This document shows positions 2,870 through 37,570 of a DNA stretch of 64,000 bases, one piece after another. The stretch lies in assembly GCA_963737155.1 (NCBI GenBank), contig CAVTRN010000001.1, forward strand, positions 960,001 through 1,024,000. The letters run 5' to 3'. Position 1 is the first letter of the stretch. Every line of letters starts with the position of its first letter. This stretch comes from Nitrospirota bacterium (GTDB taxonomy: Bacteria; Nitrospirota; UBA9217). The position numbers and the translations under genes are program-made. Below the pieces are notes generated by a model. The model was given only the letters and a program-made list of their open reading frames with translations, was not told the origin of the DNA and ran no database searches.

Positions 2870-3985
2870 TTGAAAGTGAAAAAACGCGAGTCGGTCTTCG
2901 CGTTGGGTGGTATCGCCCATGATTTTAATAAGCTGCTCGTCGGGATACTCAGCAACATCGAGCTGGTCAATATGCAAGTCGTTTTTCATGGATGGACTTA
3001 TTATATGCTGACCGAGGCGGAGAAAGCCACATACAGGGTGAAAGACCTGACGTCCCAATTCCTGATGTTTGGAAAGGGGGAGCGTCGGCCAGAACGATGA
3101 TCGTCGCTGCGAACACCATACGGGATGCAGCCCGTTTGGCCCTCAGGGGCGCAATTCGAAGCCCATTGTTCCCATTCCTGAAGACTCTTGGCTTGTCGAA
3201 GCGGATGAAGGCCAGCTGAACCAAGTCATCAGCGATCTGGTCATTAATGCGGACCAAGCCATGCCCGGAGGAAAGCGATCATCATTGGCTGCAGGTATGT
3301 CACACTTGGGCCTAACGAGGTGCCCGCGCTCGTGGAAGAAACCTATGTAAAAGTATCTATCGGAGACCAAGGGTTGGGAATATCCGGAGAGCACCTCTCG
3401 CGGATTTTCGATTCCAATTTTAATACAAAGCAGAAGGGGTGCGGTCTTGGACTTGTAATGTCGTGTGCCATCATTAAAAAACATCTCGGAACCATTACAG
3501 TCGAGACCGAGGAGGGGAAGGGCAGCTTGTTCCATGTTTATCTCCCCGCTAAAGTAGATGCAGTTCCGAAGAATGCGGTCAGGAATGGGGATCTTCCCCC
3601 GGGAAAGCGGAGGATTCTCGTAATGGATGATGATGAATTCATCCGAGATGTCTGCGGTCATATTCTGCAGGCTCTCGGCTATGATGTTTTTTCCGCGATC
3701 GATGGAGCGGAGGCGCTTTACCTTTACTGGATTTCGAGAGAATCAGGAACTCCCTGTGACGCAGTCATCATGGACCCGACTATTGTAGGGGTCATGGAAG
3801 GAAGAGAGGCTATACAGAAACAGCTTGAGTTCGATCCCGATGCTAAAGCAATCGTGTCGAGTGGTTATCCGAACGATCCCGTGATTGCACATTATGAACA
3901 ATGCGGTTTTAAAGGAGCTGTCGCGAAACCCTATCGAATGAAAGATCTGGGTGAGGTATTGCAAAAAGTACTTTGTTCCCAGTAG
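2870..3985 (+). pseudogene. fragmented hybrid histidine kinase/response regulator
   Basis: HisKA GGIAHDFN (2870-3100), N-box QLNQVISDLVINADQAMPGG (3069-3350) and G-boxes plus receiver (3320-3985) in separate overlapping ORFs; no sensor domain. Confidence 0.8.
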
Positions 3986-4107
3986 TTGCCCACGGAATCT
4001 AATGGGGGCATGTGAACGACATTTTTCTTGATTTTTTGGGCAGTTCGTACGATAATGGCCGACTTACAGCACTTATTTCACTTTCCAGTCTGAGGAGGAT
4101 CGTAACA

Positions 4108-4761
4108 ATGAGAATCATTCTGTTGGGCGCACCGGGCGCGGGCAAAGGCACGGTTGCGAAACTTTTAACGGCTCTGGACGGTTCAGTCCAGATTTCCACC
4201 GGCGATATTTTGCGCGGCGCGGTGAAGGCCGGAACACCGCTCGGCAAAGAAGCGCAGGGTTTTATGGACCGGGGCGACCTGGTTCCCGATTCTCTTATCA
4301 TGGGCATCATGGGTCAGCGGCTGCAAGAGAAGGATTGCCAGAAGGGGTTCCTGCTCGACGGGTTCCCGCGAACAATACCCCAGGCCGATGCGCTCGGCGA
4401 GCTTCTTCAGAAGCACAACATCAAGCTCGATCTGGTGGCGAACATTGAGGTTCCGCGTGATGTGATCCTCGACCGTCTAACGACGCGCCGGACCTGTTCC
4501 AACTCCTCTTGCCAGGAGATCTACAACGTAAAGAGCAATCCACCGGCGCCTGGGGACAAGTGCAAGAAATGCGGCAGCCCGACTATTCAACGCGCCGACG
4601 AGACTGTGGAAGCCATTAGCAAGCGTCTTGATGTCTACAACGAAAAGACCGCTCCGCTCATCGGCTATTACGAAAAGAAGGGCATGCTTCTCACTATTAA
4701 AGAGGCCAGCAGCGACGGGGTGGTGAATGCCATCAAGAAGGGGATTGCTGCGAAGAAGTAA
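4108..4761 (+). CDS. adk: adenylate kinase with Zn-binding LID
   Basis: GAPGAGKGT P-loop, ISTGDILR, FLLDGFPRT, four LID cysteines; GAGGAGG RBS. Confidence 0.97.
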   Translation: MRIILLGAPGAGKGTVAKLLTALDGSVQISTGDILRGAVKAGTPLGKEAQGFMDRGDLVPDSLIMGIMGQRLQEKDCQKGFLLDGFPRTIPQADALGELLQKHNIKLDLVANIEVPRDVILDRLTTRRTCSNSSCQEIYNVKSNPPAPGDKCKKCGSPTIQRADETVEAISKRLDVYNEKTAPLIGYYEKKGMLLTIKEASSDGVVNAIKKGIAAKK

Positions 4762-4782
4762 TTCCTGTTGTTGTCGAATAAG

Positions 4783-4813
4783 AAAAGGCGGGATGCAGGT
4801 CATCCCGCCTTTT
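4783..4813 (+). terminator. intrinsic terminator after adk, potentially bidirectional
   Basis: AAAAGGCGGGATG-CAGGT-CATCCCGCCTTTT. Confidence 0.85.
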
Positions 4814-5140
4814 ATAGTCAGCTCCTTGTATTAGGATTGATTAATCCGGGGTCGGCAATGATCACGATATTGTGGATAATATAACCCATTTTAAATTGCC
4901 ATCATAAATATCTATGAGTAAATTGTAGCGATTCAGGTGGTGTTAAATACTAATTATAGTGCCATCAGTTTTAAGACGGTAGGTAAATTGAAGAAGCACT
5001 TTGATAATTTTCTAAACAGTCTCAACCCACCAAGCTGAATCACACATTTATTTACACGAACAAAACACCATTTCTTGCCAGAGAGCAAAGACAAGAGCAG
5101 TTCTTAGCTAATTCATAGCCATTGTGAATATATTCAAAAT

Positions 5141-6515
5141 CATTGCTGTCCAAGATAATCTAATTTCTGAGACTGACCCTAGCTAATCAATGCTTTTAGA
5201 CAGGTAAATCCATTTTCTCCGATCCAGGTTCTCCATCCTGCTGTCCAATTACCAGTACCTCAACACGAGTTGTTCCACAGACGGTACTATCGGCGGTGTT
5301 TCAAACGGATTATCCAACCATGTCCATAAATCTCGATACGTAAAGAGATTATAACGGAGCATAGCAACCAGATTCGACAGTGACCAGCCAAGCGTGGATC
5401 GGAACTTTAGGTACTTCAACACCAGGATGGCGATTAATGCTGTCCAAATTTGGGTCAACAGAGCATTTCGGCTTGTTCCCACAAACGTCTTGATCTTCAG
5501 ATTCTGCTTGATCGTCTTGAAAAATACCTCGATCTGCCAACGGTCCTTGTAAATGCTCGCGATGGTCGTCGCACCAAAGGTGAGGTGATTTGTCTACAGA
5601 ACGATGATCCGTTCATTTTCCTCGTCCCAAACCTCTACTCGTCGCAACGTATGTGGGCACTTCTTAATTGATTCGTAGGCCGTCAGTTCAATAAGTTCGT
5701 CTTTGATAATATTCCGGTTGCTGGGAACCTCCCATTTTTCGACAACCCGATAGGCTGCATTGTCCTTCTCTCTCGTTACAAAGAAAATCCCGGCCTGTGT
5801 CCATCGTGCAAACTGTTCATAGTCTACATATCCGCGGTCGATTGCCAAAATAGAACCCTTGGGAAACGTGAGCGTATGAGCGATGTTCACTTCATGCACA
5901 TTCCCTTCGGTTATACTGGCGAAGACCGGAAGGTATCCCTCATGATCCTACAACATGTGAAGTTTGACCGCACCTTTCGTCTGCCGAAACTTTGCCCAGT
6001 CAAATAATGTCACACAAAGCTCAATGGTCGTGGCATCGAGGCGGAACAGTTTGTTCTTAAACCGAAAAGGTTTCTTCCCGTGTGCCAGTACCCGGCATTT
6101 GGCCAAGAGCTGATAAAACACCTTCTGGTACAATTGCCACGGCCGATGCTCGTTGGCATAGGCCAGAGTGGAGCGTTTGGGCGCCACATCGATACCGAGG
6201 TGCTTAAGTTTTCCCAGGCATGTTGCCAGTCCTCTGCATATCTCACGCAGAGAATGCGCTTGACCCAACTGACAGAACAACATTGCGACAAACTGGCCCC
6301 AGCAACTGAATCCTTTTACACCCTTCTCGGCTCTCGTTTCCCGTACGGCCCTGACAAAATCCTGATGAGGAAAAATCTGTAGAATCTGTCCGAAGATACT
6401 GTTAAACTTGTTCATGGGGATGTCCTCCTCCAGCAAATAATGGTCTTCGACAAACCAAATTTACCTTAAAGAGGTTTCCCCTGCAATTACTCAATTATTA
6501 TCTTGGACGGGTGTG
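5141..6515 (-). mobile_element. complete IS4-family insertion sequence (ISPepr1-like), 1375 bp
   Basis: Imperfect IRs CATTGCTGTCCAAGATAAT (5141-5159) and ATTATCTTGGACGGGTGTG (6497-6515); 9-bp target duplication ATTCAAAAT at 5132-5140 and 6516-6524. Confidence 0.9.
5249..6415 (-). pseudogene. IS4-family DDE transposase with two in-frame TAG codons
   Basis: One reading frame of 389 codons; DATTI, DRGY and YKDRWQIEVFFK motifs; TAG at 5948-5950 and 5594-5596. Confidence 0.9.
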
Positions 6516-6660
6516 ATTCAAAATATATAAATAAAAGCATAAGGGTAGATATTCCCGCCATTTGTTTGTGCCATTATCACCGGCGATATCTAGTAGCGAA
6601 CGGGGCTACTCTTTATTCGAATTTTTTTTGTGTAAATATCCGCGGATTTACGTTCGAAGG

Positions 6661-6870
6661 TTATGTTGGTTCTATTAAATTATTATACTTTATTACCCTG
6701 TTCTTCCCTTTAGCTTTTGCCGTATACATTGCTATATCAGCTTGCTTTAATAGTTCTTGTACGGTTGCTCCCTCTTTATAAAACGTTGCACCGATGCTTA
6801 GTGTCCGTGACCTGTTCTTTGCATCAAGATTTTCTAGGGCTGAAGACAATTCATTTTTCAATTGTTGAAT
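6661..6870 (-). pseudogene. C-terminal GGDEF-domain fragment
   Basis: TLSIGATFY...ELLKQADIAMYTAKAKGKNRV; the GGDEF motif and N-terminal half are absent. Confidence 0.75.
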
Positions 6871-6974
6871 TTTTTCCATTGGTTTTGTGTTATGTTGATT
6901 ATCCTTGCGTATTAAAAACAATAAATTGTTAAGACCTTCTCCTAATCGACGATTGTAGGACAAGCTGTTTTACA

Positions 6975-7092
6975 CTGTAGCTTGCTACAGAGGATTGCAT
7001 ATAGGGAAGTATTTGAGAAATCGCAGGGTTCTCGTAAGATAATCGTCTTCCTTCTTATTGATACCCCACAGCTTGCTGTGGGGGAGGTTCAT
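6975..7092 (+). mobile_element. IS200/IS605-type non-autonomous palindromic element
   Basis: Two hairpins with AGCTTGCT core (6975-6990, 7064-7083), ending in TTCAT; similar to 31893-32030 and 61263-61291. Confidence 0.55.
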
Positions 7093-7684
7093 TAAGAGTT
7101 GTTGATACATTCCCGAAAGCCTTTGCACGAGCAGAGAAATCAATAAACCACCCTGTCGTAGAGTACTTGATGCTGCTCTTATTCCAGTTCATATCATAGT
7201 CAAGCTGAGAAGAGGCAAGATCTTAATGCGAGGCTAGTCATTAATTACGATTACAATTCTTATAAACATAAGCCGACTACTGCAACTTAATTCGAGTCCA
7301 GTACGGTAGCCAATAATAATCACGATGCAAATTAGTCTTCTTTTGCTATTTTATTGGTTCAAGTCCTAAGTTAGTAGGCAACTTTACGCCCTTTTTGATC
7401 ATGTGTCGGAAGCATTCAAGAGAGTGCGACCGCGCGCATGGGAATCGCCTAAGATGCCATGAATCGCTCTCTTTAGCAAGCAGCCGGTAAAGCGATACAA
7501 ATCGGAGAGAGGTCGTCTTGTACGTAAAATTTGTATCTTTTTTTCGATTTATTAAAAAAAGCTTCTAGAGCGGGGTTTATGACCGAATCGCCATAATTTC
7601 ACACACTCGATAGGAACTTGATCCAAAATAACAAAGAGGTTTATCATAAGTTCCGGAATAAAGTTCAAGAATACCATGCCTGTC

Positions 7685-7698
7685 ATGATATAAATCAT
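7685..7698. promoter_or_regulatory. possible Crp/Fnr-family (Fnr/Dnr/HcpR-like) site
   Basis: ATGAT-ATAA-ATCAT palindrome, 8/10 match to TTGAT-N4-ATCAA, upstream of the hemerythrin/PAS gene. Confidence 0.35.
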
Positions 7699-7743
7699 AT
7701 GAACTTATTATGAAGAATTATATTATGCAATCGTAAAAGGAGG

Positions 7744-9171
7744 ATGCCTATGGACCTGTCAGCTAAAACCAGAGTCAATGATCTTTTAATACGTTACCCC
7801 TTTTTAAAAGACTTTCTCATCAGTCTTAATCCCGAATTCAAAATGCTCGATAATCCCTTCATGCGCAAGACCGTGGGCCGGATTGCATCCGTGGGAAAAG
7901 TAGCCATGATCGGCGGGATGGATGCGAAAAAACTTCTCGACGACATAGCCGCGGAGATCAAGAAGGAAACCAGCGAGGAGGTCAGTGTTTCGTACGGTGA
8001 AGGCGGCCCTGATGAACAGGAGCTTAAGATTGACAAAATGAAGGAAATCATCAAGGAACTTCATGCTGGAAAAGATGCCGAGTCGCAGAAGAAAAAGTTT
8101 GAAGAACTGATTAAGGATGTGGCACCCTGGGAAATAGCGCAGATGGAGCAGAAGCTTATTGCCGAAGGCATGCCTGAGACTGAGATAAAAAGTCTCTGCG
8201 AGGTACATGTGCAGGTATTCAAAGAAGCGCTGGAGCATAAGACGGTGCCCGGCCTTCCTGCCGGACACCCGGTGCATACGCTGATGCTAGAGAACCGAGT
8301 TGCGGAGGATATCCTGAAAGAGCTGGAAGCGATTGCCGATTTTGTCGCGGAAAAAGAAAAGCTCCTTGGCATTCTCGGCCGCCTCGCCCAAATCGACAAG
8401 CACTTCCTCCGCAAGGAGAACCAACTTTTCCCGATTATTGAAACGAAGGGCATCACCGGACCCTCGAAAGTCATGTGGGCGCTTCATGACGACATCCGCG
8501 CGTTTATCAAGGACGTGCGGAAGCGTATTGTTGATGGGAAGATGGAGAAGGTGGCCTCCGAATCGCTGGTGAAAATGGTTAATGACATGATCTACAAGGA
8601 AGAGCACATCCTCTTTCCTATGGCGCTTGAAACGCTTTCCGAAGATGAATGGGCCAAAGTACGAAAAGGAGAAGAGGAGATCGGATTTGCATGGGTTAAG
8701 CCCGAAACGGAATGGAAACCTGCGGTGGAATCGTTCCAGCAAGAGCTTCTGGCCGAGAAAGTCGGCAGCCTGAATCTCGATACAGGCCAGCTCACAGCAG
8801 AGCAGGTCAACCTGATCCTGGTCCATCTTCCCGTTGATCTTTCTTTCGTGAACGAGAACGATGAGGTTGTTTATTATTCAGCCACGCCTGAGCGTATTTT
8901 CCCGCGCAGTCCGGGTGTGATCGGGCGAAAAGTACAGAATTGCCACCCGCACAAGAGCGTGGACATGGTGGAGAAGATTCTTGCATCGTTTAAGGCAGGA
9001 ACAAAGGATGTAGCGGAATTTTGGATCCAGATGCGCGACAGAGTGATTCTCATTCGGTACTTTGCCGTCCGCGATTCAGCAGGAAAGTACCGTGGTTGTC
9101 TCGAAGTTTCCCAGGACATTACAGAGATACAGAAGCTCACAGGACAGAAGAGGCTGCTAGATTGGGAGTAA
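7744..9171 (+). CDS. DUF438 family protein (DUF1858-like, DUF438, hemerythrin-like and PAS domains)
   Basis: LCEVH, GHPVHTLMLEN, HFLRKENQLFP, VMWALHDDIR, KEEHILFP; C-terminal PAS with IGRKVQNCHP. Confidence 0.9.
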   Translation: MPMDLSAKTRVNDLLIRYPFLKDFLISLNPEFKMLDNPFMRKTVGRIASVGKVAMIGGMDAKKLLDDIAAEIKKETSEEVSVSYGEGGPDEQELKIDKMKEIIKELHAGKDAESQKKKFEELIKDVAPWEIAQMEQKLIAEGMPETEIKSLCEVHVQVFKEALEHKTVPGLPAGHPVHTLMLENRVAEDILKELEAIADFVAEKEKLLGILGRLAQIDKHFLRKENQLFPIIETKGITGPSKVMWALHDDIRAFIKDVRKRIVDGKMEKVASESLVKMVNDMIYKEEHILFPMALETLSEDEWAKVRKGEEEIGFAWVKPETEWKPAVESFQQELLAEKVGSLNLDTGQLTAEQVNLILVHLPVDLSFVNENDEVVYYSATPERIFPRSPGVIGRKVQNCHPHKSVDMVEKILASFKAGTKDVAEFWIQMRDRVILIRYFAVRDSAGKYRGCLEVSQDITEIQKLTGQKRLLDWE

Positions 9172-31892: not shown

Positions 31893-32030
31893 GTCCTGAA
31901 ATACCCAGCAGCTTGCTGCTGGGATGAAAAGGACATCCTGGCGAAGCCAGGATAAGTCTTCAGCTTCTTTGTTGTGCTTTTTTAAGGTTTCAAGTTCCGA
32001 TGCCCCGCAGCTTGCTGCGGGGTAATTCAC
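31893..32030 (+). mobile_element. IS200/IS605-type non-autonomous palindromic element
   Basis: Hairpins CCCAGCAGCTTGCTGCTGGG (31904-31923) and CCCCGCAGCTTGCTGCGGGG (32003-32022), ending in TTCAC. Confidence 0.6.
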
Positions 32031-32817: not shown

Positions 32818-33270
32818 ATGGAAACAAGCCGTAGGAAATTCATCAAAAAGTCTTTCTACGGCTTGCTTGCGCTCATGGGTCTTGGCTATTTGATACCTGG
32901 CGTCAAGGTACTCACTCCGGCAGAGGACTACAAGAAGGAGCTGGTTTACTTCCCGCTTATCTCTGAAGACGACATTCCGCTTGCCGGTGTGAAAAAAGTG
33001 GAGTTGCTCTTCACGGTCTTGGGTAAGGAAAGAAAATCCCGGGTGTTCATCGTATCAAATGCCGGCGGTATCGCGGTGTTCTCTGCCATCTGTTCTCACC
33101 TCGGATGTCTCGTCAATTACTACAAGGACAAGCATGAGTTCATCTGCCCCTGCCACGGAGGAAGATATGATCTGGCGGGCAAAAATATTGCTGGACCGCC
33201 ACCGGCGCCCCTGACTAAGCTCCCGACCCGCAGTCAGGACGGCATGATACTAGTTGGAGTGAAAGTTTAA
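32818..33270 (+). CDS. Rieske 2Fe-2S subunit of a Rieske/cytochrome b complex
   Basis: Tat motif SRRKFIK plus TM; CSHLGC and CPCHGG boxes; GPPPAPL. Confidence 0.93.
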   Translation: METSRRKFIKKSFYGLLALMGLGYLIPGVKVLTPAEDYKKELVYFPLISEDDIPLAGVKKVELLFTVLGKERKSRVFIVSNAGGIAVFSAICSHLGCLVNYYKDKHEFICPCHGGRYDLAGKNIAGPPPAPLTKLPTRSQDGMILVGVKV

Positions 33271-33297
33271 TCATGACCGATATCCTCACGGGTGAGG

Positions 33298-33663
33298 ATG
33301 CGAAATCGCCGGGATAAACCGGTATAGAGTTGGGAGTGAAAGTCCCCTGCATGAGAGGATTATCTAATCCGTGATGGCCCCGAGTCATGCGCGGGCAGTC
33401 GTGAGATTGTACGTGAAGCGTTGACAGAGAAGCGTAGTCCAGCCATTTAGCTCCGAAATCACCTAGACCGGGGGTGCCACTGCGTCATCCATCGGGAACC
33501 ATCATACTACAACATTTAGCGTTTTTTGAAGGATACGCAAAGCAGAAGGCATGAAGGAACTCAAACCATAGGCTTTACGTGGATGACCTAAGGTAAGAGC
33601 CGTGAAAGTAATTCTTCTCGCACGGATCCGTGTGGGGGGCATCTGGGATGTCCCTACCTCGAT
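33298..33663 (+). mobile_element. ORF-less, internally deleted group II intron remnant
   Basis: 5' (A)TGCG start, GTGAAAGTCCC and GGCCCCGAGTCATGCG...GAAGCGTTGACAG domain I-like motifs; domain V/VI-like GAGCCGTG...CGCACGGATCCGTGTGGGGGGC...CCCTACCTCGAT. Confidence 0.8.
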
Positions 33664-33763
33664 CTATATGGTAGGTTCGGGGATTTAATGGTAACCATAG
33701 GTATCACCTGCCAAGTTCGGGAGTGCGACTATTCCCGCTGTTTGCAATCATTGTCATCAACCT

Positions 33764-34408
33764 ATGCGAGTTTTTGATTATCTCAATACACGTCTGGGTT
33801 TCACCACCAGACACCGAAGAGTGATGGATAAACCGGTGCCGGGATGGATTAACTATTTTTACTGCTTCGGCGGAATAACCTTCACGCTGTTTCTTGTGCA
33901 GCTACTAACAGGACTGCTTCTCTCCGTGAATTACACGCCATCTGAAGCGGAGGCATACCATAGCATTCAGCGCCTGCAGCAGACCGTGCCGCTGGGACAG
34001 CTGCTTCGTGCGACCCATTACTGGGCCGCGAACTTCATGGTAATGATGATCCTGCTCCATATGCTCAGGGTTTTCCTTACCGGATCTTACAAAAACCCGC
34101 GGGAACTGAACTGGGTCGCCGGCACTCTGCTGTTTGTCTTGACCCTCGCTTTCGGGTTTACCGGCTACCTTCTACCTTGGGACCAGAAGGCATATTGGGC
34201 CACCGTCATCGGAACGAATATGCTTGCCTCAGTGCCGTTCATCGGGCCTCCTCTCGCCGCATTCGTCCGGGGAGGCACTGACGTTTCGGGTCAGACACTT
34301 CTCCGGTTTTACAGCATGCACATCCTGTGGTTCCCACTTTTTACTGGGCTTTTCCTTTGGGTGCACTTCCATATATTAAGAAGGATCGGGATTTCTGGGC
34401 GGTTGTAG
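33764..34408 (+). CDS. cytochrome b6-like N-terminal cytochrome b subunit
   Basis: YCFGG (heme ci Cys position), RATHYW, LHMLRVF, PRELNW, GYLLPWDQ, H...H in helix D; 214 aa. Confidence 0.93.
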   Translation: MRVFDYLNTRLGFTTRHRRVMDKPVPGWINYFYCFGGITFTLFLVQLLTGLLLSVNYTPSEAEAYHSIQRLQQTVPLGQLLRATHYWAANFMVMMILLHMLRVFLTGSYKNPRELNWVAGTLLFVLTLAFGFTGYLLPWDQKAYWATVIGTNMLASVPFIGPPLAAFVRGGTDVSGQTLLRFYSMHILWFPLFTGLFLWVHFHILRRIGISGRL

Positions 34409-34483
34409 GGATGATAGATAAAAGACACTAAGCATGCGAACGCTTTATTGTTCGTGTGGCGAACGATTATTTGGAACCAAAAT

Positions 34484-34867
34484 ATGCCCACACATCAGGA
34501 AAACAAATTTTTCCCCTACTATTTGTTTGAAATTTTTCTCGTGGCGCTGTTTACCGGCGAGGTCGTCCTGATCTTTGCGGTCTTGTTCCCTCCGAGTGTC
34601 GGTAGGGAGATAGATCTCATGGCGCAGTATAGCCCGCGCCCCGAATGGTATTTTCTCTTCCTGTATCAACTGACGAAATATTTCCCCGGCAGATGGACTT
34701 TTGTTGGCGCGGTACTGCTTCCTGGATTTGCCTTCAGTGTTCTGCTTCTTGCTCCGTTTCTGGATAGCGGGTCGGAAACAACGCTCAAAAGGCGAAAAGC
34801 TACATTAGCTGTTGGCTTCACCATCCTGGGTGCGGTTATTCTTCTTACGATTCTGGCACTGCTATAA
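34484..34867 (+). CDS. cytochrome b C-terminal subunit (subunit IV-like)
   Basis: FFPYY, PEWY Qo-site motif, PFLD; three TM helices; no CxxCH. Confidence 0.9.
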   Translation: MPTHQENKFFPYYLFEIFLVALFTGEVVLIFAVLFPPSVGREIDLMAQYSPRPEWYFLFLYQLTKYFPGRWTFVGAVLLPGFAFSVLLLAPFLDSGSETTLKRRKATLAVGFTILGAVILLTILALL

Positions 34868-34944
34868 GGAAATTCATGTTGGCTATAATATAAGCAAATA
34901 CATTATTGCGTTGTTTCTAATGTGTGAAATGACGAAAACGAGTA

Positions 34945-34973
34945 TTGACAGGATACGGCGTTTTTGATAAGTT
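34945..34973 (+). promoter_or_regulatory. sigma70 promoter of tusA-yeeE
   Basis: TTGACA-17 nt-TAAGTT with TG extension; ~190-nt leader. Confidence 0.5.
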
Positions 34974-35172
34974 ATCATTCTGTCTTATGGAAAGCACTCG
35001 GACCCATGATTGCATTCGTTTCATCAAGAGTGAAACGGTAGCAGAGGGGGTGATGTTCCGGATCAAAACACATAAAAAATGATTTAAGAAATCTTTTGTC
35101 TCCAGCATGTTTGTTAACGAGCTGCTTACCATGAGCGGCCCGAAATCATGAACTACCTTAAGGAGGAATACC

Positions 35173-35421
35173 ATGTCAGTCAAAACCGCCTCACCAGATC
35201 AAACTTTGGATACTCTTGGGAGGGTGTGTCCCTATCCGCTGCTCCTCACCAAGAAGGCGCTCGAGAAACTCGGAAGCGGTCAGACGCTTAAGGTTTTGTG
35301 CGACGCACCTGCATCGGCCGAGGACAGCATTCCGCGTTATGCGGAAAAGCAGGGATATGGCTTCGAGGCAGTAAAGCTCGATGATAAGGGATACTGGGAG
35401 CTCTTCATCAAGAAGTCGTAA
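35173..35421 (+). CDS. TusA/YeeD-family sulfur carrier
   Basis: LDTLGRVCPYP motif, 82 aa; AGGAGG RBS. Confidence 0.93.
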   Translation: MSVKTASPDQTLDTLGRVCPYPLLLTKKALEKLGSGQTLKVLCDAPASAEDSIPRYAEKQGYGFEAVKLDDKGYWELFIKKS

Positions 35422-35503
35422 AGAAGTGGGAATTCCGGGGCGGAGACTGCGAGCCTCGATGTCGAGGGAACAGAAGGAGTAAAAATCCAAGGAGGGGGGA
35501 ATA

Positions 35504-36610
35504 ATGGTTTCTACATTGGCATTTGTCGTGAGCGGTCTGTTCGTTGGCGCAGCATTCGGTTTCGTTTTGCAGCGTGGCCGCTTCTGTGTCAATTCTGCGT
35601 TCCGGGAAGTTCTCTTCGAGGACTACACCATGTTCCGGGCCTACCTTCTCGCCGTCGTGGTTACCATGATTGGCGCGAACTTGCTTGAGGACATGCACTG
35701 GCTTGGCCATTTTCAAGACGGAGCCTTCGTCACCGGTACTCTCTACCGGCAGGCCTTTGCACCCTGGGCCAATATAATCGGAGGCTATATCTTTGGTATG
35801 GGCATTGTTCTCGCCGGCGGGTGCGGAAGCGGTATTCTGTACCGCGTGGGTGAAGGAAACCTGGCGTACGTCTTCGCCGTATTCGGGTTTTTCTTCGGCA
35901 TTGCGATGACCAAATTCGGCTTCCTGAAATCGATTTACAATTGGACGATCGCACCTGAACGTATTGTTTGGACGGGTGGGGATACGGTCCCGACCCTGTA
36001 TAATATTACTGGCATCAATAAGTGGATCGTCATTGCCGTGATTTCCGCAGTGTTCCTGGTGGCAACATTCAAGGGCAGCAAACCCTTCGTCAAGGCGAAG
36101 AAGGGATATTCATGGTCTCTAGCCGGACTCCTAGCCGGTCTGATAGCCGTATTAGCGTGGTGGGCGTCGGAGTATTACGGTGGTAAGGCCCGCGGCCTCT
36201 CATTCACCGGGCCGCTCAGGGAGTTCTTCCTGGCTGTGTTTTTCGGGGACTATCAGAACAATCCGACTGCCGTTAACCCGATAGAATCCCGGAATATCCT
36301 CGGCATGATTTTTTCGTGGAGCTCGCTTTACGTGCTGGCCGTGCCCCTCGGGGCGTTCATCAGCGGTAAACTCCTGAAAGAGGTGAAGTTGAAGGTACCA
36401 CCGGCGGACGAGCTCTTCAAGGTGCTTCTGGGCGGGTTTATCATGGGGGTTGGCGCGCAGATGGGCGGAGGCTGCAATATTGGTCACAGCCTGACAGGCG
36501 TGTCCACCCTTGCCGTATCGAGCTGGGTTGCCACCATCTTCATCATCTTAGGAAACTGGACCATGGTCTATTTCATTCTCATCAGGCCGATGAGAGATCT
36601 GGACGTATAA
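35504..36610 (+). CDS. YeeE/YedE-family thiosulfate/sulfur-compound transporter
   Basis: QRGRFC, LAGGCGSG and GGGCNIGH (three conserved Cys loops); multiple TM helices. Confidence 0.93.
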   Translation: MVSTLAFVVSGLFVGAAFGFVLQRGRFCVNSAFREVLFEDYTMFRAYLLAVVVTMIGANLLEDMHWLGHFQDGAFVTGTLYRQAFAPWANIIGGYIFGMGIVLAGGCGSGILYRVGEGNLAYVFAVFGFFFGIAMTKFGFLKSIYNWTIAPERIVWTGGDTVPTLYNITGINKWIVIAVISAVFLVATFKGSKPFVKAKKGYSWSLAGLLAGLIAVLAWWASEYYGGKARGLSFTGPLREFFLAVFFGDYQNNPTAVNPIESRNILGMIFSWSSLYVLAVPLGAFISGKLLKEVKLKVPPADELFKVLLGGFIMGVGAQMGGGCNIGHSLTGVSTLAVSSWVATIFIILGNWTMVYFILIRPMRDLDV

Positions 36611-36625
36611 ACGCTACTTCATCAG

Positions 36626-36655
36626 ACCGGGTGGGATTTCCTGCCCGGTTTTTTT
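36626..36655 (+). terminator. intrinsic terminator after yeeE
   Basis: ACCGGGTGGGA-TT-TCCTGCCCGGT followed by a T run. Confidence 0.75.
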
Positions 36656-36768
36656 GCCCCCAGAATAAAAATAAAACACTTGTTATAATATTGAGAACGA
36701 TGTATATTGATCTGTCTGTTTCCGGCGGGACAGCGCTATATGCTTATTATGACGAAGGGAGCTAAAAT

Positions 36769-37074
36769 ATGGCAATTGAAATGCTGGGCATCATGATAAC
36801 GAGGCACGAGAATCTTGGCCATATCACCGGTATCGTGAAGGCAGCGCGCGCGGCGGGCAAGTCCGTCATGATCTTCATGACTGATGAAGGCGTGCGCTTC
36901 ACGAAAGACGCCAAATTTCTCGATCTGCTGAAGATGGACGGTGTCGAAATATCCTGTTGCGAACACAGCTGTGAGCAAATCGGGTTGCATGAAAAAACCG
37001 ACAGCATGTCGTACGGCAGCCAGTACAATAACGCGGGCATGCTGCATGACAGCAGCCGCATTCTGGTGTTTTAA
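36769..37074 (+). CDS. DsrE-family sulfurtransferase
   Basis: VMIFMTDEGV, CCEHSC (conserved Cys), C-terminal SSRILVF. Confidence 0.85.
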   Translation: MAIEMLGIMITRHENLGHITGIVKAARAAGKSVMIFMTDEGVRFTKDAKFLDLLKMDGVEISCCEHSCEQIGLHEKTDSMSYGSQYNNAGMLHDSSRILVF

Positions 37075-37101
37075 CAATCAGAACACAAGGAGAAACATTC
37101 C

Positions 37102-37380
37102 ATGGGAGATACAAAAAAAATTGCAGTCATTGTGAGGGAGCGGCAAGGCGAAGCGTTACGTGTTGCGGGCGGCCTTACGCTGGCCGATGACACGATAGAT
37201 GTCTTTATCCTTGACCGCAAACTTGAAACGCAAACCCCCGAAGTTGCACAGCCGCTTGAACTGGTCAACGAGTTGGATCTGAAAGTTTATTCCAATAATT
37301 CGGAAAATGGCTGTACGACAATCACGCTTGAGGGAATGGCAAATAAACTCCTGGAGTATGATTTCGTAGTGCCCTACTAA
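37102..37380 (+). CDS. DsrF-like small protein
   Basis: EALRVAGGLTL and YDFVVPY end; size and position after dsrE. Confidence 0.65.
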   Translation: MGDTKKIAVIVRERQGEALRVAGGLTLADDTIDVFILDRKLETQTPEVAQPLELVNELDLKVYSNNSENGCTTITLEGMANKLLEYDFVVPY

Positions 37381-37399
37381 GAGACGGAAGGAGAGCGCC

Positions 37400-37570
37400 G
37401 TGAAAATTTTGCACATCCTAAAAAAAATGCCGGATGCCAGCACAAAGAAGATCATTGAGCTTCAAGCATCGGGCAACCAGGTAACAACGATAGAGCTCTA
37501 TAAGGGTGGCATATCCTACGACAAACTTGTAGCCGATGTGTTCGCACATGATAAGGTTTTCTGCTGGTAA
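37400..37570 (+). CDS. DsrH-like 56-aa protein (below ORF-track cutoff)
   Basis: AAGGAG RBS and GTG; MKILHILKK...ISYDKLVADVFAHDKVFCW*, resembling the DsrH/TusB C-terminus. Confidence 0.7.
   Translation: MKILHILKKMPDASTKKIIELQASGNQVTTIELYKGGISYDKLVADVFAHDKVFCW

Follow-up and report, generated by a model that had tools for sequence, protein, structure and literature searches.

Electron routes between the quinone pool and periplasmic sulfur are a missing piece in accounts of how bacteria disproportionate sulfur compounds and of how "sulfate reducers" run backward. Several described systems come close to the locus analysed here, which lies in a 64,000-nucleotide (nt) stretch of DNA, the window, from an uncultured Nitrospirota bacterium (GenBank assembly GCA_963737155.1, contig CAVTRN010000001.1, positions 960,001 to 1,024,000 of the forward strand). 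At this locus, genes for a Rieske protein, a cytochrome b6, and a subunit IV stand beside a sulfur-trafficking gene set that encodes TusA, YeeE, and three small proteins (DsrE2, chp1, and chp2). Together, the five sulfur genes make up the YTD cluster of the literature (named for YedE, TusA, and DsrE), and the products of the last three are the trio called DsrEFH type II.

That name for the trio comes from PMC13293266, in whose passages on the cluster the three proteins of a cable-bacterium homologue are reported to co-purify. The same passages describe in vitro transfer of sulfur from TusA to the DsrE cysteine of the cable-bacterium homologue, and they report the cluster from 985 genomes in 20 phyla, subtype 1 being mostly Nitrospirota. 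The same structural conclusion, a DsrEFH-like complex, was reached independently in PMC13047784, according to its section on the trio; both papers date from 2026. A precedent of another kind is MccSep, which the relevant part of PMC13510729 describes as a soluble, periplasmic, 49-kDa, pentahaem selenocysteine (Sec) polysulfide reductase from Geobacter sulfurreducens.

We favour the explanation, at a probability of roughly 60%, that the locus consists of three separately transcribed units of known families, adjacent mainly through synteny within one bacterial family, and that the cytochrome c partner of its Rieske/b6 complex is encoded elsewhere in the genome. The candidate for this partner is new: a multihaem cytochrome with an invariant site occupied by cysteine (Cys) or Sec, whose spread in 301 Nitrospirota genomes mirrors that of Rieske/b6. 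In three lineages, gene order ties the Cys/Sec cytochrome to the Rieske/b6 complex, to TusA/YeeE, or to both. The features on which the argument draws are listed in Table 1.

Table 1. Features of the Rieske/b6-YTD block and of related genes elsewhere in the host genome (G000, contigs C1 and C2). Positions without a prefix are those of the window; aa, amino acids; ORF, open reading frame.
Feature	Position	Strand	Evidence or remark
Rieske operon promoter, TTGACA-17 nt-TATAAA	32784..32812	+	Read by eye; absent from promoter scan list
Rieske 2Fe-2S protein, 150 aa	32818..33270	+	PF00355, 1.1e-10
363-nt insertion, group II intron fragment without ORF	33301..33663	+	Starts just after conserved hairpin ATCCTCACGGGTGAGGAT
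Cytochrome b6, 214 aa (split N-terminal half of cytochrome b)	33764..34408	+	PF00033 Cytochrome_B, 1.5e-52
Subunit IV, 139 aa (C-terminal part of cytochrome b)	34448..34867	+	PF00032 Cytochrom_B_C, 9.5e-07
tusA promoter, AAAACGAGTATTGACA, 17 nt, TAAGTT, with TG upstream	34935..34973	+	TTGACA-17-TAAGTT at 34945-34973
TusA/YeeD-type sulfur carrier, 82 aa, CPYP cysteine	35173..35421	+	PF01206, 8.6e-22
YeeE/TsuA-type sulfur (thiosulfate) transporter, 368 aa	35504..36610	+	PF04143 Sulf_transp, 7.7e-69
Intrinsic terminator after yeeE, ACCGGG...CCCGGT and T-run	36626..36656	+	Read by eye; absent from scan list
Promoter-like site before DsrE-like gene	36680-36708	+	Promoter scan
DsrE-like protein (DsrE type II, DsrE2), 101 aa	36769..37074	+	PF02635, below cut-off
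chp1, 92 aa, DsrE/DsrF-like fold (DsrF type II)	37102..37380	+	AlphaFold and Foldseek
chp2, 56 aa, beta-alpha-beta-alpha-beta, DsrH type II position	37400..37570	+	Conserved in 61 sequences
Multihaem cytochrome c, ~645 aa, on the other contig, outside the window	G000:C2:2829354-2831237 (= L103:8300-10237)	-	tblastn with the L061 cytochrome
dsrH/E/F-like genes of the dsr operon	L100 (G000:C2:1106001-1121000), 7118-8329		Profile matches

The eight plus-strand ORFs between positions 32818 and 37570, from the Rieske gene to chp2, fall into three transcription units, as evidenced by conserved, separate promoters and a terminator after yeeE. The tusA promoter lies ~200 nt upstream of the tusA start, and its block, AAAACGAGTATTGACA...TGATAAGTT, shows no variation among all 12 sequences aligned from the window's family; the window contains one exact copy of it and no second good copy. 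At the Rieske promoter, TTGAC and the -10 block are kept in the aligned family sequences, although not in L021, which belongs to another family. This promoter stops 5 nt short of the start codon, with no visible Shine-Dalgarno sequence, which makes a leaderless Rieske mRNA probable. The earlier note on this DNA, made from its letters without database searches, had already read a separate tusA promoter and a terminator after yeeE and had concluded that the block is not one operon, and this reading holds.

A regulatory element common to the three units did not emerge either. Neither a repeat search of the window, which returned only short two-copy families of the kind expected by chance, nor a search with the tusA block found a shared operator. 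Matches to the sigma-54 consensus with at most two mismatches numbered 42 in the window against 57.8 expected, and none precedes any of the three units. We also observed a hairpin in the tusA leader (GGnCCG ... CGGnCC, window positions 35105 to 35150), ~25 nt before the ribosome-binding site, that recurs with changes on both arms in most aligned relatives.

How far the adjacency of the Rieske/b6 genes and the YTD genes is conserved was judged from a wider scan of 77 loci, some of them from the same genomes, of which 32 encode a DsrE-like protein with at least 67% identity and 45 a distant one (35 to 45%). Among the 32, the Rieske, b6, and subunit IV genes stand directly upstream of tusA in 20 and 7 kb away in 1; they are missing within at least 8 kb in 6, and the flank is too short in 5, which leaves 20 of 27 informative loci with direct adjacency. 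As a control, an unrelated, outer-membrane-like downstream gene persists in 23 of these 32 loci. Since an unrelated gene is kept equally often, conserved adjacency alone says little about function at this depth. In the survey of adjacency among relatives, the parts lie on different contigs in three cases, and the search for an orthologue found none in one genome that is 74% complete.

Outside the close relatives, the link is rare. Only 1 of the 45 loci with distant DsrE-like genes has the module (L061), and TusA, YeeE, or YTD genes occur within ~8 kb of 2 of the 29 Rieske/b6 loci in other families (L061 and G095). At 7 unlinked loci and at 20 further loci, the three genes recur among unrelated neighbours and without an adjoining CxxCH ORF; in the unlinked loci, the gene after subunit IV is a glycosyltransferase, radical-SAM, sigma-54 activator, universal stress protein (Usp), ABC-transporter, or other gene. 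The Rieske/b6/subunit IV set is a free-standing module across the phylum, and its adjacency to YTD is mainly synteny inherited within one Nitrospirota family. The linkage, whose conservation across genomes the earlier note had proposed to test, is not unique to the host, but it belongs largely to one family, and 27 of 29 loci in other families lack it. The further proposal of a coupled quinol/sulfur module is weakened by linkage no better kept than that of an unrelated gene, by separate promoters, and by the failure to find a shared operator.

The Rieske/b6 genes themselves encode a recognizable quinol-oxidizing complex. The Rieske translation carries a twin-arginine translocation (Tat) motif, SRRKFIK, and the cluster boxes CSHLGC and CPCHGG, each with an extra Cys. 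Over its full length, cytochrome b6 aligns with the b6 chains of solved b6f complexes (6rqf_I, 9e-61), and its four His and one Cys align with the same residues in 6rqf_I and 1q90_B; in such complexes, the four His hold the two b haems and the Cys binds haem ci/cn. Subunit IV contains the PEWY quinol-oxidation motif (PRPEWYFLF). No NCBIfam model, those for b6 and PetC included, reached its curated cut-off with any protein of the block. Altogether, the six gene identities assigned earlier (Rieske, b6, subunit IV, TusA, YeeE, and DsrE) all find their Pfam family, that of DsrE below the cut-off.

A c-type subunit (f, c1, or dihaem c) is encoded neither in the operon nor in the 64-kb window. Indeed, a CxxCH motif is found in 0 of 69 non-overlapping ORFs of at least 70 aa in the window, which bears out and extends the earlier observation that the block lacks a CxxCH protein. 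The 4.84-Mb host genome, assembled in two contigs, has three Rieske/cytochrome b loci. The other two have a fused cytochrome b and adjoining multihaem genes of c7/c3 type, with 11 and 3 CxxCH motifs at one locus and 5 and 5 at the other; of the three, the window's locus alone has a split cytochrome b and alone lacks a cytochrome c gene next to it. On its other side, the module adjoins rho and rpmE (ribosomal protein L31). The gene-poor spacer of 1.4 kb between rho and the Rieske gene holds a 23-nt palindromic element in two copies, 87% alike and 99 nt apart (window positions 31901 to 31923 and 32000 to 32022), which may be an extragenic repeat.

We posit that the seemingly "cytochrome c-less" state of this module is probably a matter of gene dispersal, with the partner encoded elsewhere in the genome. 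The earlier note had left the electron acceptor unnamed; its statement that the block has no c gene stands, while a concrete candidate, which it missed, can now be named on the other contig. The lead comes from L061, where a 659-aa cytochrome with 8 CxxCH motifs is encoded directly after b6. The host orthologue is 46% identical to it by tblastn and 48% in a second comparison. Members of this cytochrome family are ~645 aa long with a hydrophobic N terminus, and 26 of 27 homologues have 8 CxxCH motifs. Searches of Pfam, NCBIfam, and the PDB gave no family for the cytochrome beyond weak c7/c3, HmcA, or NrfH-like rows; solved chains gave no match at an E value of at most 1 save rows at chance level, and matches in the ESM Atlas were unnamed clusters of the c3/c7 family only.

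The host gene has one in-frame TGA at the position where 26 homologues have an invariant Cys. This residue is not a haem-motif residue and lies in the motif GP[HNQ]N[C/U]GPSFAD. In all 9 genes checked, which come from two families, TGA stands at the same codon and precedes a hairpin with compensatory changes in its stem, and the host genome has a tRNA-Sec gene (C1:1517263-1517361). The TGA at an invariant Cys, the compensating hairpin, and the tRNA-Sec gene together are good evidence for Sec, and the host cytochrome is likely, on these sequence features, to be a new selenoprotein. In the main texts of the papers searched, no report was found of the Rieske/b6-YTD adjacency or of the Cys/Sec cytochrome; the word "Rieske" is absent from PMC13293266, PMC13490349, and PMC13510729 and occurs once in PMC13047784.

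This cytochrome is assigned as partner because its gene neighbours the module in two lineages and because the two co-occur across genomes that are related to one another. At thresholds of 1e-60 for the cytochrome and 1e-68 for the b6 orthologue, the former was found in 119 and the latter in 106 of the 301 Nitrospirota genomes, with nearly equal tallies by family. Hand counts divide as follows. Among 237 genomes outside the window's family, 58 have both genes, none has b6 only, 9 have the cytochrome only (4 of these 9 with just 35 to 43% identity), and 170 have neither. Among 63 genomes of the window's family, the corresponding numbers are 44, 3, 7, and 9, and 5 of 6 genomes of one genus of this family (g27) lack both genes. 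Of the 9 genomes of family f16 with both genes, 5 have the cytochrome gene at most 4.5 kb from the module, and in one of them (G128) it abuts subunit IV.

Several observations weigh against the favoured explanation. The first group concerns the partner. Related genomes are not independent, so the co-occurrence counts overstate the partnership. Among 20 cytochrome loci of other families, none has Rieske/b6 genes within ~9 kb. Also, the N terminus of the cytochrome is weakly NrfH-like (E value of 0.031), and the cytochrome might therefore oxidize quinol on its own. The second group concerns synteny. In L061, the genes run on one strand in the order DsrE2-chp1-chp2-YeeE-like-TusA-Usp-subunit IV-Rieske-b6-cytochrome; in G095, Rieske-b6-subunit IV is followed by YeeE and TusA on the opposite strand and then by the cytochrome. 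Because both arrangements differ from that of the window, they argue for more than frozen synteny. Within the window's family, moreover, the module of three genomes (G015, G016, and G019) stands near other sulfur-trafficking genes after the orthologous cluster has moved.

The sulfur genes match their published counterparts. YeeE aligns with the solved transporter of Spirochaeta thermophila (6leo_A, 1.8e-45) and keeps its three Cys motifs. The DsrE-like protein matches PF02635 at 9.3e-4 and 19.8 bits, under the cut-off of 22.7, and its Cys64 is invariant across 11 aligned sequences; this residue would be the equivalent of Cys67/Cys78 in published homologues. Its relatives are nearly all from metagenome-assembled genomes (MAGs) titled Nitrospirota, Nitrospirae, or Thermodesulfovibrionales. 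Pfam has no match for chp1 or chp2, and profiles of DsrE2 and chp1 gave 0 matches at an E value of at most 1 against the sequences of solved structures. These null profile searches agree with the published remark that the type II proteins diverge strongly.

For chp1, which is conserved in 49 sequences, the AlphaFold model has a predicted local distance difference test (pLDDT) score of 90.3, and Foldseek matches it to 1jx7_A (YchN, DsrE/DsrF-like; 8.8e-5), 3mc3, 2hy5_B, and 2hy5_A, the last two being DsrF and DsrE of 2HY5. The protein had been called DsrF-like from its sequence, and this reading holds. For chp2, the model is very confident (pLDDT of 97.7); Foldseek found nothing at an E value of at most 0.001, and VIA-align placed chains of the DsrE/F family at Z scores of 4.7 to 5.3, level with many unrelated Rossmann-like chains. 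The description of the 56-aa protein as DsrH-like comes from the literature; our own searches do not single out DsrH.

Relatives of the cluster show further variation. Five loci (L028, L030, L035, L036, and L038) have the orthologous TusA-DsrE2-chp1-chp2 set without yeeE. The same five carry a second, paralogous cluster, transcribed divergently from the orthologous set (at ~3000 to 9000 in each locus), in the order chp1, chp2, and a DsrE-like gene (35 to 39% identity), together with a long YeeE-like gene and another TusA gene. Two of the loci surveyed, L030 and L098, are contigs of one MAG titled "Betaproteobacteria bacterium", and their gene sets are 77 to 83% identical to those of the window's Nitrospirota family. 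Probably, either this title is wrong or the bin is mixed.

The host genome has dissimilatory sulfur genes, whose absence was among the refuting findings named in the earlier note. Both dsrA and dsrB score above their cut-offs, and the genome carries a dsrABD-N-C-MKJOP set, at whose locus dsrD, dsrC, and dsrMKJOP are joined by a dsrN-like gene that matches cobyrinic acid a,c-diamide synthase; aprA, sat, and qmoC stand together in one region of contig 1. The presence of dsrD beside dsrAB is a marker typical of the reductive type. We also observed a second, more canonical trio of dsrH/E/F-like genes inside the dsr operon, between dsrC and dsrMKJOP, with weak matches (TIGR03011 with 47.1 bits, short of its cut-off of 49.2; TusD at 1.6e-5; TusC at 1.7e-8). 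With dsrD and these dsrH/E/F-like genes in the dsr operon, the host genome has two DsrEFH-like sets and a dsr cluster of mixed type. The earlier use of the YTD cluster as a marker of disproportionation is challenged by PMC13293266, which, in its discussion of the trio, argues that the cluster indicates sulfur oxidation rather than disproportionation.

We propose the following course of events for the favoured explanation. The Rieske operon would be expressed from its own strong promoter, and the b6-type complex would oxidize menaquinol at the PEWY site. In a Q cycle, as the conserved residues suggest, one electron would pass through the periplasmic Rieske cluster and the other would be recycled through the b haems. 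The Rieske centre would then hand its electron to an acceptor in the periplasm, for which the Cys/Sec cytochrome is the likeliest candidate. YeeE would import thiosulfate or a related sulfur anion, and TusA would take the sulfur onto its cysteine; DsrE2-chp1-chp2 would accept this sulfane sulfur from TusA on Cys64 and pass it toward DsrC/DsrAB. Alternatively, lithotrophic growth may drive the chain in the opposite direction. Both the Rieske module and the sulfur relay probably contribute to one sulfur-based energy metabolism; they are not a single operon, and nothing indicates that they make up a single machine.

Midpoint potentials limit what such a chain might reduce. Tetrathionate, nitrite, metal oxides, and, through oxidases, oxygen would be within reach of an enzyme fed by a Rieske centre. 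Polysulfide and elemental sulfur were considered as acceptors of a Rieske-fed cytochrome and dropped, as their reduction would be strongly uphill by the same potentials. On these potentials, a sulfur role for the cytochrome points to tetrathionate or a similar S-S compound.

The best-surviving alternative, which we consider somewhat unlikely, is that the window shows part of one co-selected system, the electron loop of disproportionation. Menaquinol made by sulfur oxidation in the cytoplasm (through DsrMKJOP and Qmo) would feed Rieske/b6, which would pass electrons to a Cys/Sec cytochrome that reduces a periplasmic sulfur compound with a fairly high potential (e.g., tetrathionate or another S-S compound), and YeeE/TusA/DsrEFH type II would import and relay the product. 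In favour of such a system, Rieske/b6 is joined to TusA/YeeE in three distinct gene arrangements (in the window's family, L061, and G095), and 3 of the 20 cytochrome loci of other families (L107, L113, and L123) have TusA, YeeE, or YTD genes within 5 kb. An invariant, non-haem Cys/Sec is what one would expect of a catalytic residue, and the genome has the full dsr/apr/sat/qmo set. Nevertheless, each unit has a conserved promoter of its own and no operator common to them was found, the link is absent from all but two of the Rieske/b6 loci outside the family, and the host cytochrome gene stands among unrelated neighbours. The Rieske centre, moreover, is far too positive for sulfur or polysulfide, so only acceptors like tetrathionate fit. 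On the side of such a system stands the precedent of MccSep, another Sec multihaem cytochrome, which the part of PMC13510729 that characterizes it presents as a proven polysulfide reductase.

A different possibility, which we regard as unlikely, is that the module is a general respiratory complex that feeds soluble or membrane cytochromes c, haem-copper oxidases, or nitrogen-oxide reductases and has no specific role with sulfur or the Cys/Sec cytochrome. Two genes of the haem-copper oxidase family (C2:2509876, 490.6 bits; C1:1694297, 203 bits) speak for a purely respiratory role, and the genome has 123 CxxCH-bearing ORFs of at least 80 aa, 31 of them with three or more motifs. The position beside rho and rpmE is a housekeeping setting, and c1-less Rieske/cytochrome b operons elsewhere donate to separately encoded cytochromes, as described in the pertinent parts of PMC10172866 and PMC13047784. 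Against a general role stand the near-perfect co-occurrence with the cytochrome, the adjacency in two lineages, and the joint absence of both genes in g27, and the two further Rieske/cytochrome b complexes, with multihaem partners of their own, could serve respiration instead.

One peculiarity of the host's copy, also missed by the earlier note, lies in the spacer between the Rieske and b6 genes, which is 494 nt long in the window and ~30 to 330 nt in mapped relatives (~130 nt in the closest). The extra length is the 363-nt insertion, which is missing from the two closest relatives aligned (three sequences in the alignment). Rfam model RF02005 (group-II-D1D4-6) matches it at positions 33339 to 33552 with 70.2 bits against a gathering score of 49, over model positions 1 to 225 (domains D1 to D4). 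No other Rfam match, to D5-D6 or anything else, appears at an E value of at most 1 between positions 33200 and 33800, and the insertion has no ORF of reverse-transcriptase size. A working intron was considered and dropped on these two grounds: with D1-D4 only and neither D5/D6 nor a reverse transcriptase, the element is a fragment rather than a functional intron. Judged from its sequence, it is a dead remnant between intact genes. Partial copies occur at three other places in the host genome, with no ORF of at least 150 aa bearing a YADD-type motif within 3.5 kb of any of them. That the insertion cripples the module, by uncoupling or terminating transcription so that b6 and subunit IV are poorly expressed, would fit its restriction to the host among the three aligned sequences and the lengthening of the spacer from ~130 to 494 nt, but it is very improbable, as all three reading frames are intact and the insertion lies outside them, shuffled sequences are predicted to fold about as stably (z of -1.18), and a scan found no terminator-like site on its plus strand.

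Returning to the favoured explanation, the window's content is that of known modules, and a redox link between Rieske/b6 and sulfur is a possibility that is testable but unproven. A broader idea, which we offer tentatively and hold to be rather unlikely, is that many sulfate-reducing or disproportionating Nitrospirota share a hitherto undescribed branch of respiration in which a b6-type complex feeds menaquinol electrons into membrane-anchored multihaem cytochromes of a new family; these, with a catalytic Cys or Sec in the GP[HNQ]N[C/U]GPSFAD motif, would act on a sulfur compound in the periplasm, while YeeE/TusA/DsrEFH type II would handle the product in the cytoplasm; in the window's family, the relay genes would have been drawn beside the Rieske gene, and the cytochrome would have turned into a selenoprotein. 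Such a circuit of Rieske/b6, selenocytochrome, and YTD is suggested by gene order in a few lineages and by co-occurrence. Should the link be real, sulfur cycling in soils, sediments, and groundwater would gain a named electron path and a new selenoenzyme. Otherwise, the locus is a well-annotated case of two known modules side by side.

Comparison with known systems puts these parts in perspective. The nearest relatives of the Rieske operon are the cytochrome b6f/b6c complexes of cyanobacteria, chloroplasts, Firmicutes, and heliobacteria. Shared features are the split b6 and subunit IV, the four His, the haem-ci Cys, and PEWY, along with a Rieske protein that has both cluster boxes with an extra Cys in each; the window's protein carries a Tat signal. 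Unlike those complexes, the window's operon, and the 64 kb around it, lacks f, c1, and dihaem c, and its host is a Nitrospirota bacterium that carries dsr and apr genes.

In having no c gene in the operon, the locus resembles petCB of green sulfur bacteria (PMC10172866) and the "partial complex III" PetAB of cable bacteria (PMC13047784), as these are presented in the respective sections of the two papers. There, too, electrons are thought to reach a separately encoded cytochrome c (PMC13047784 and PMC10172866), and the published model of cable bacteria that has the partial complex III also contains the YTD cluster (PMC13047784). Set against the descriptions in those sections, with which alone the comparison was made, the window differs in that its cytochrome b is split in the b6 fashion and in that YTD adjacency and a Cys/Sec multihaem partner are not reported there.

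The sulfur genes agree with the YTD cluster in having all five genes, the invariant DsrE Cys, the DsrE/F fold of chp1, and synteny with tusA and yeeE. They differ in the order tusA-yeeE-dsrE2-chp1-chp2, divided between two transcription units directly downstream of Rieske/b6, and in a host that has the second, more canonical dsrH/E/F-like trio in its dsr operon. Finally, the candidate partner resembles MccSep, as portrayed in the portion of PMC13510729 concerned with it, in being a multihaem cytochrome c with a Sec/Cys site, in occurring in Cys- and Sec-type forms with a hairpin after the UGA, and in being found in Nitrospirota. The two are set apart, by that same published description, by the greater length of the candidate partner (~645 aa), its N-terminal anchor, its 8 CxxCH motifs against five, and the different residues that flank its Sec.

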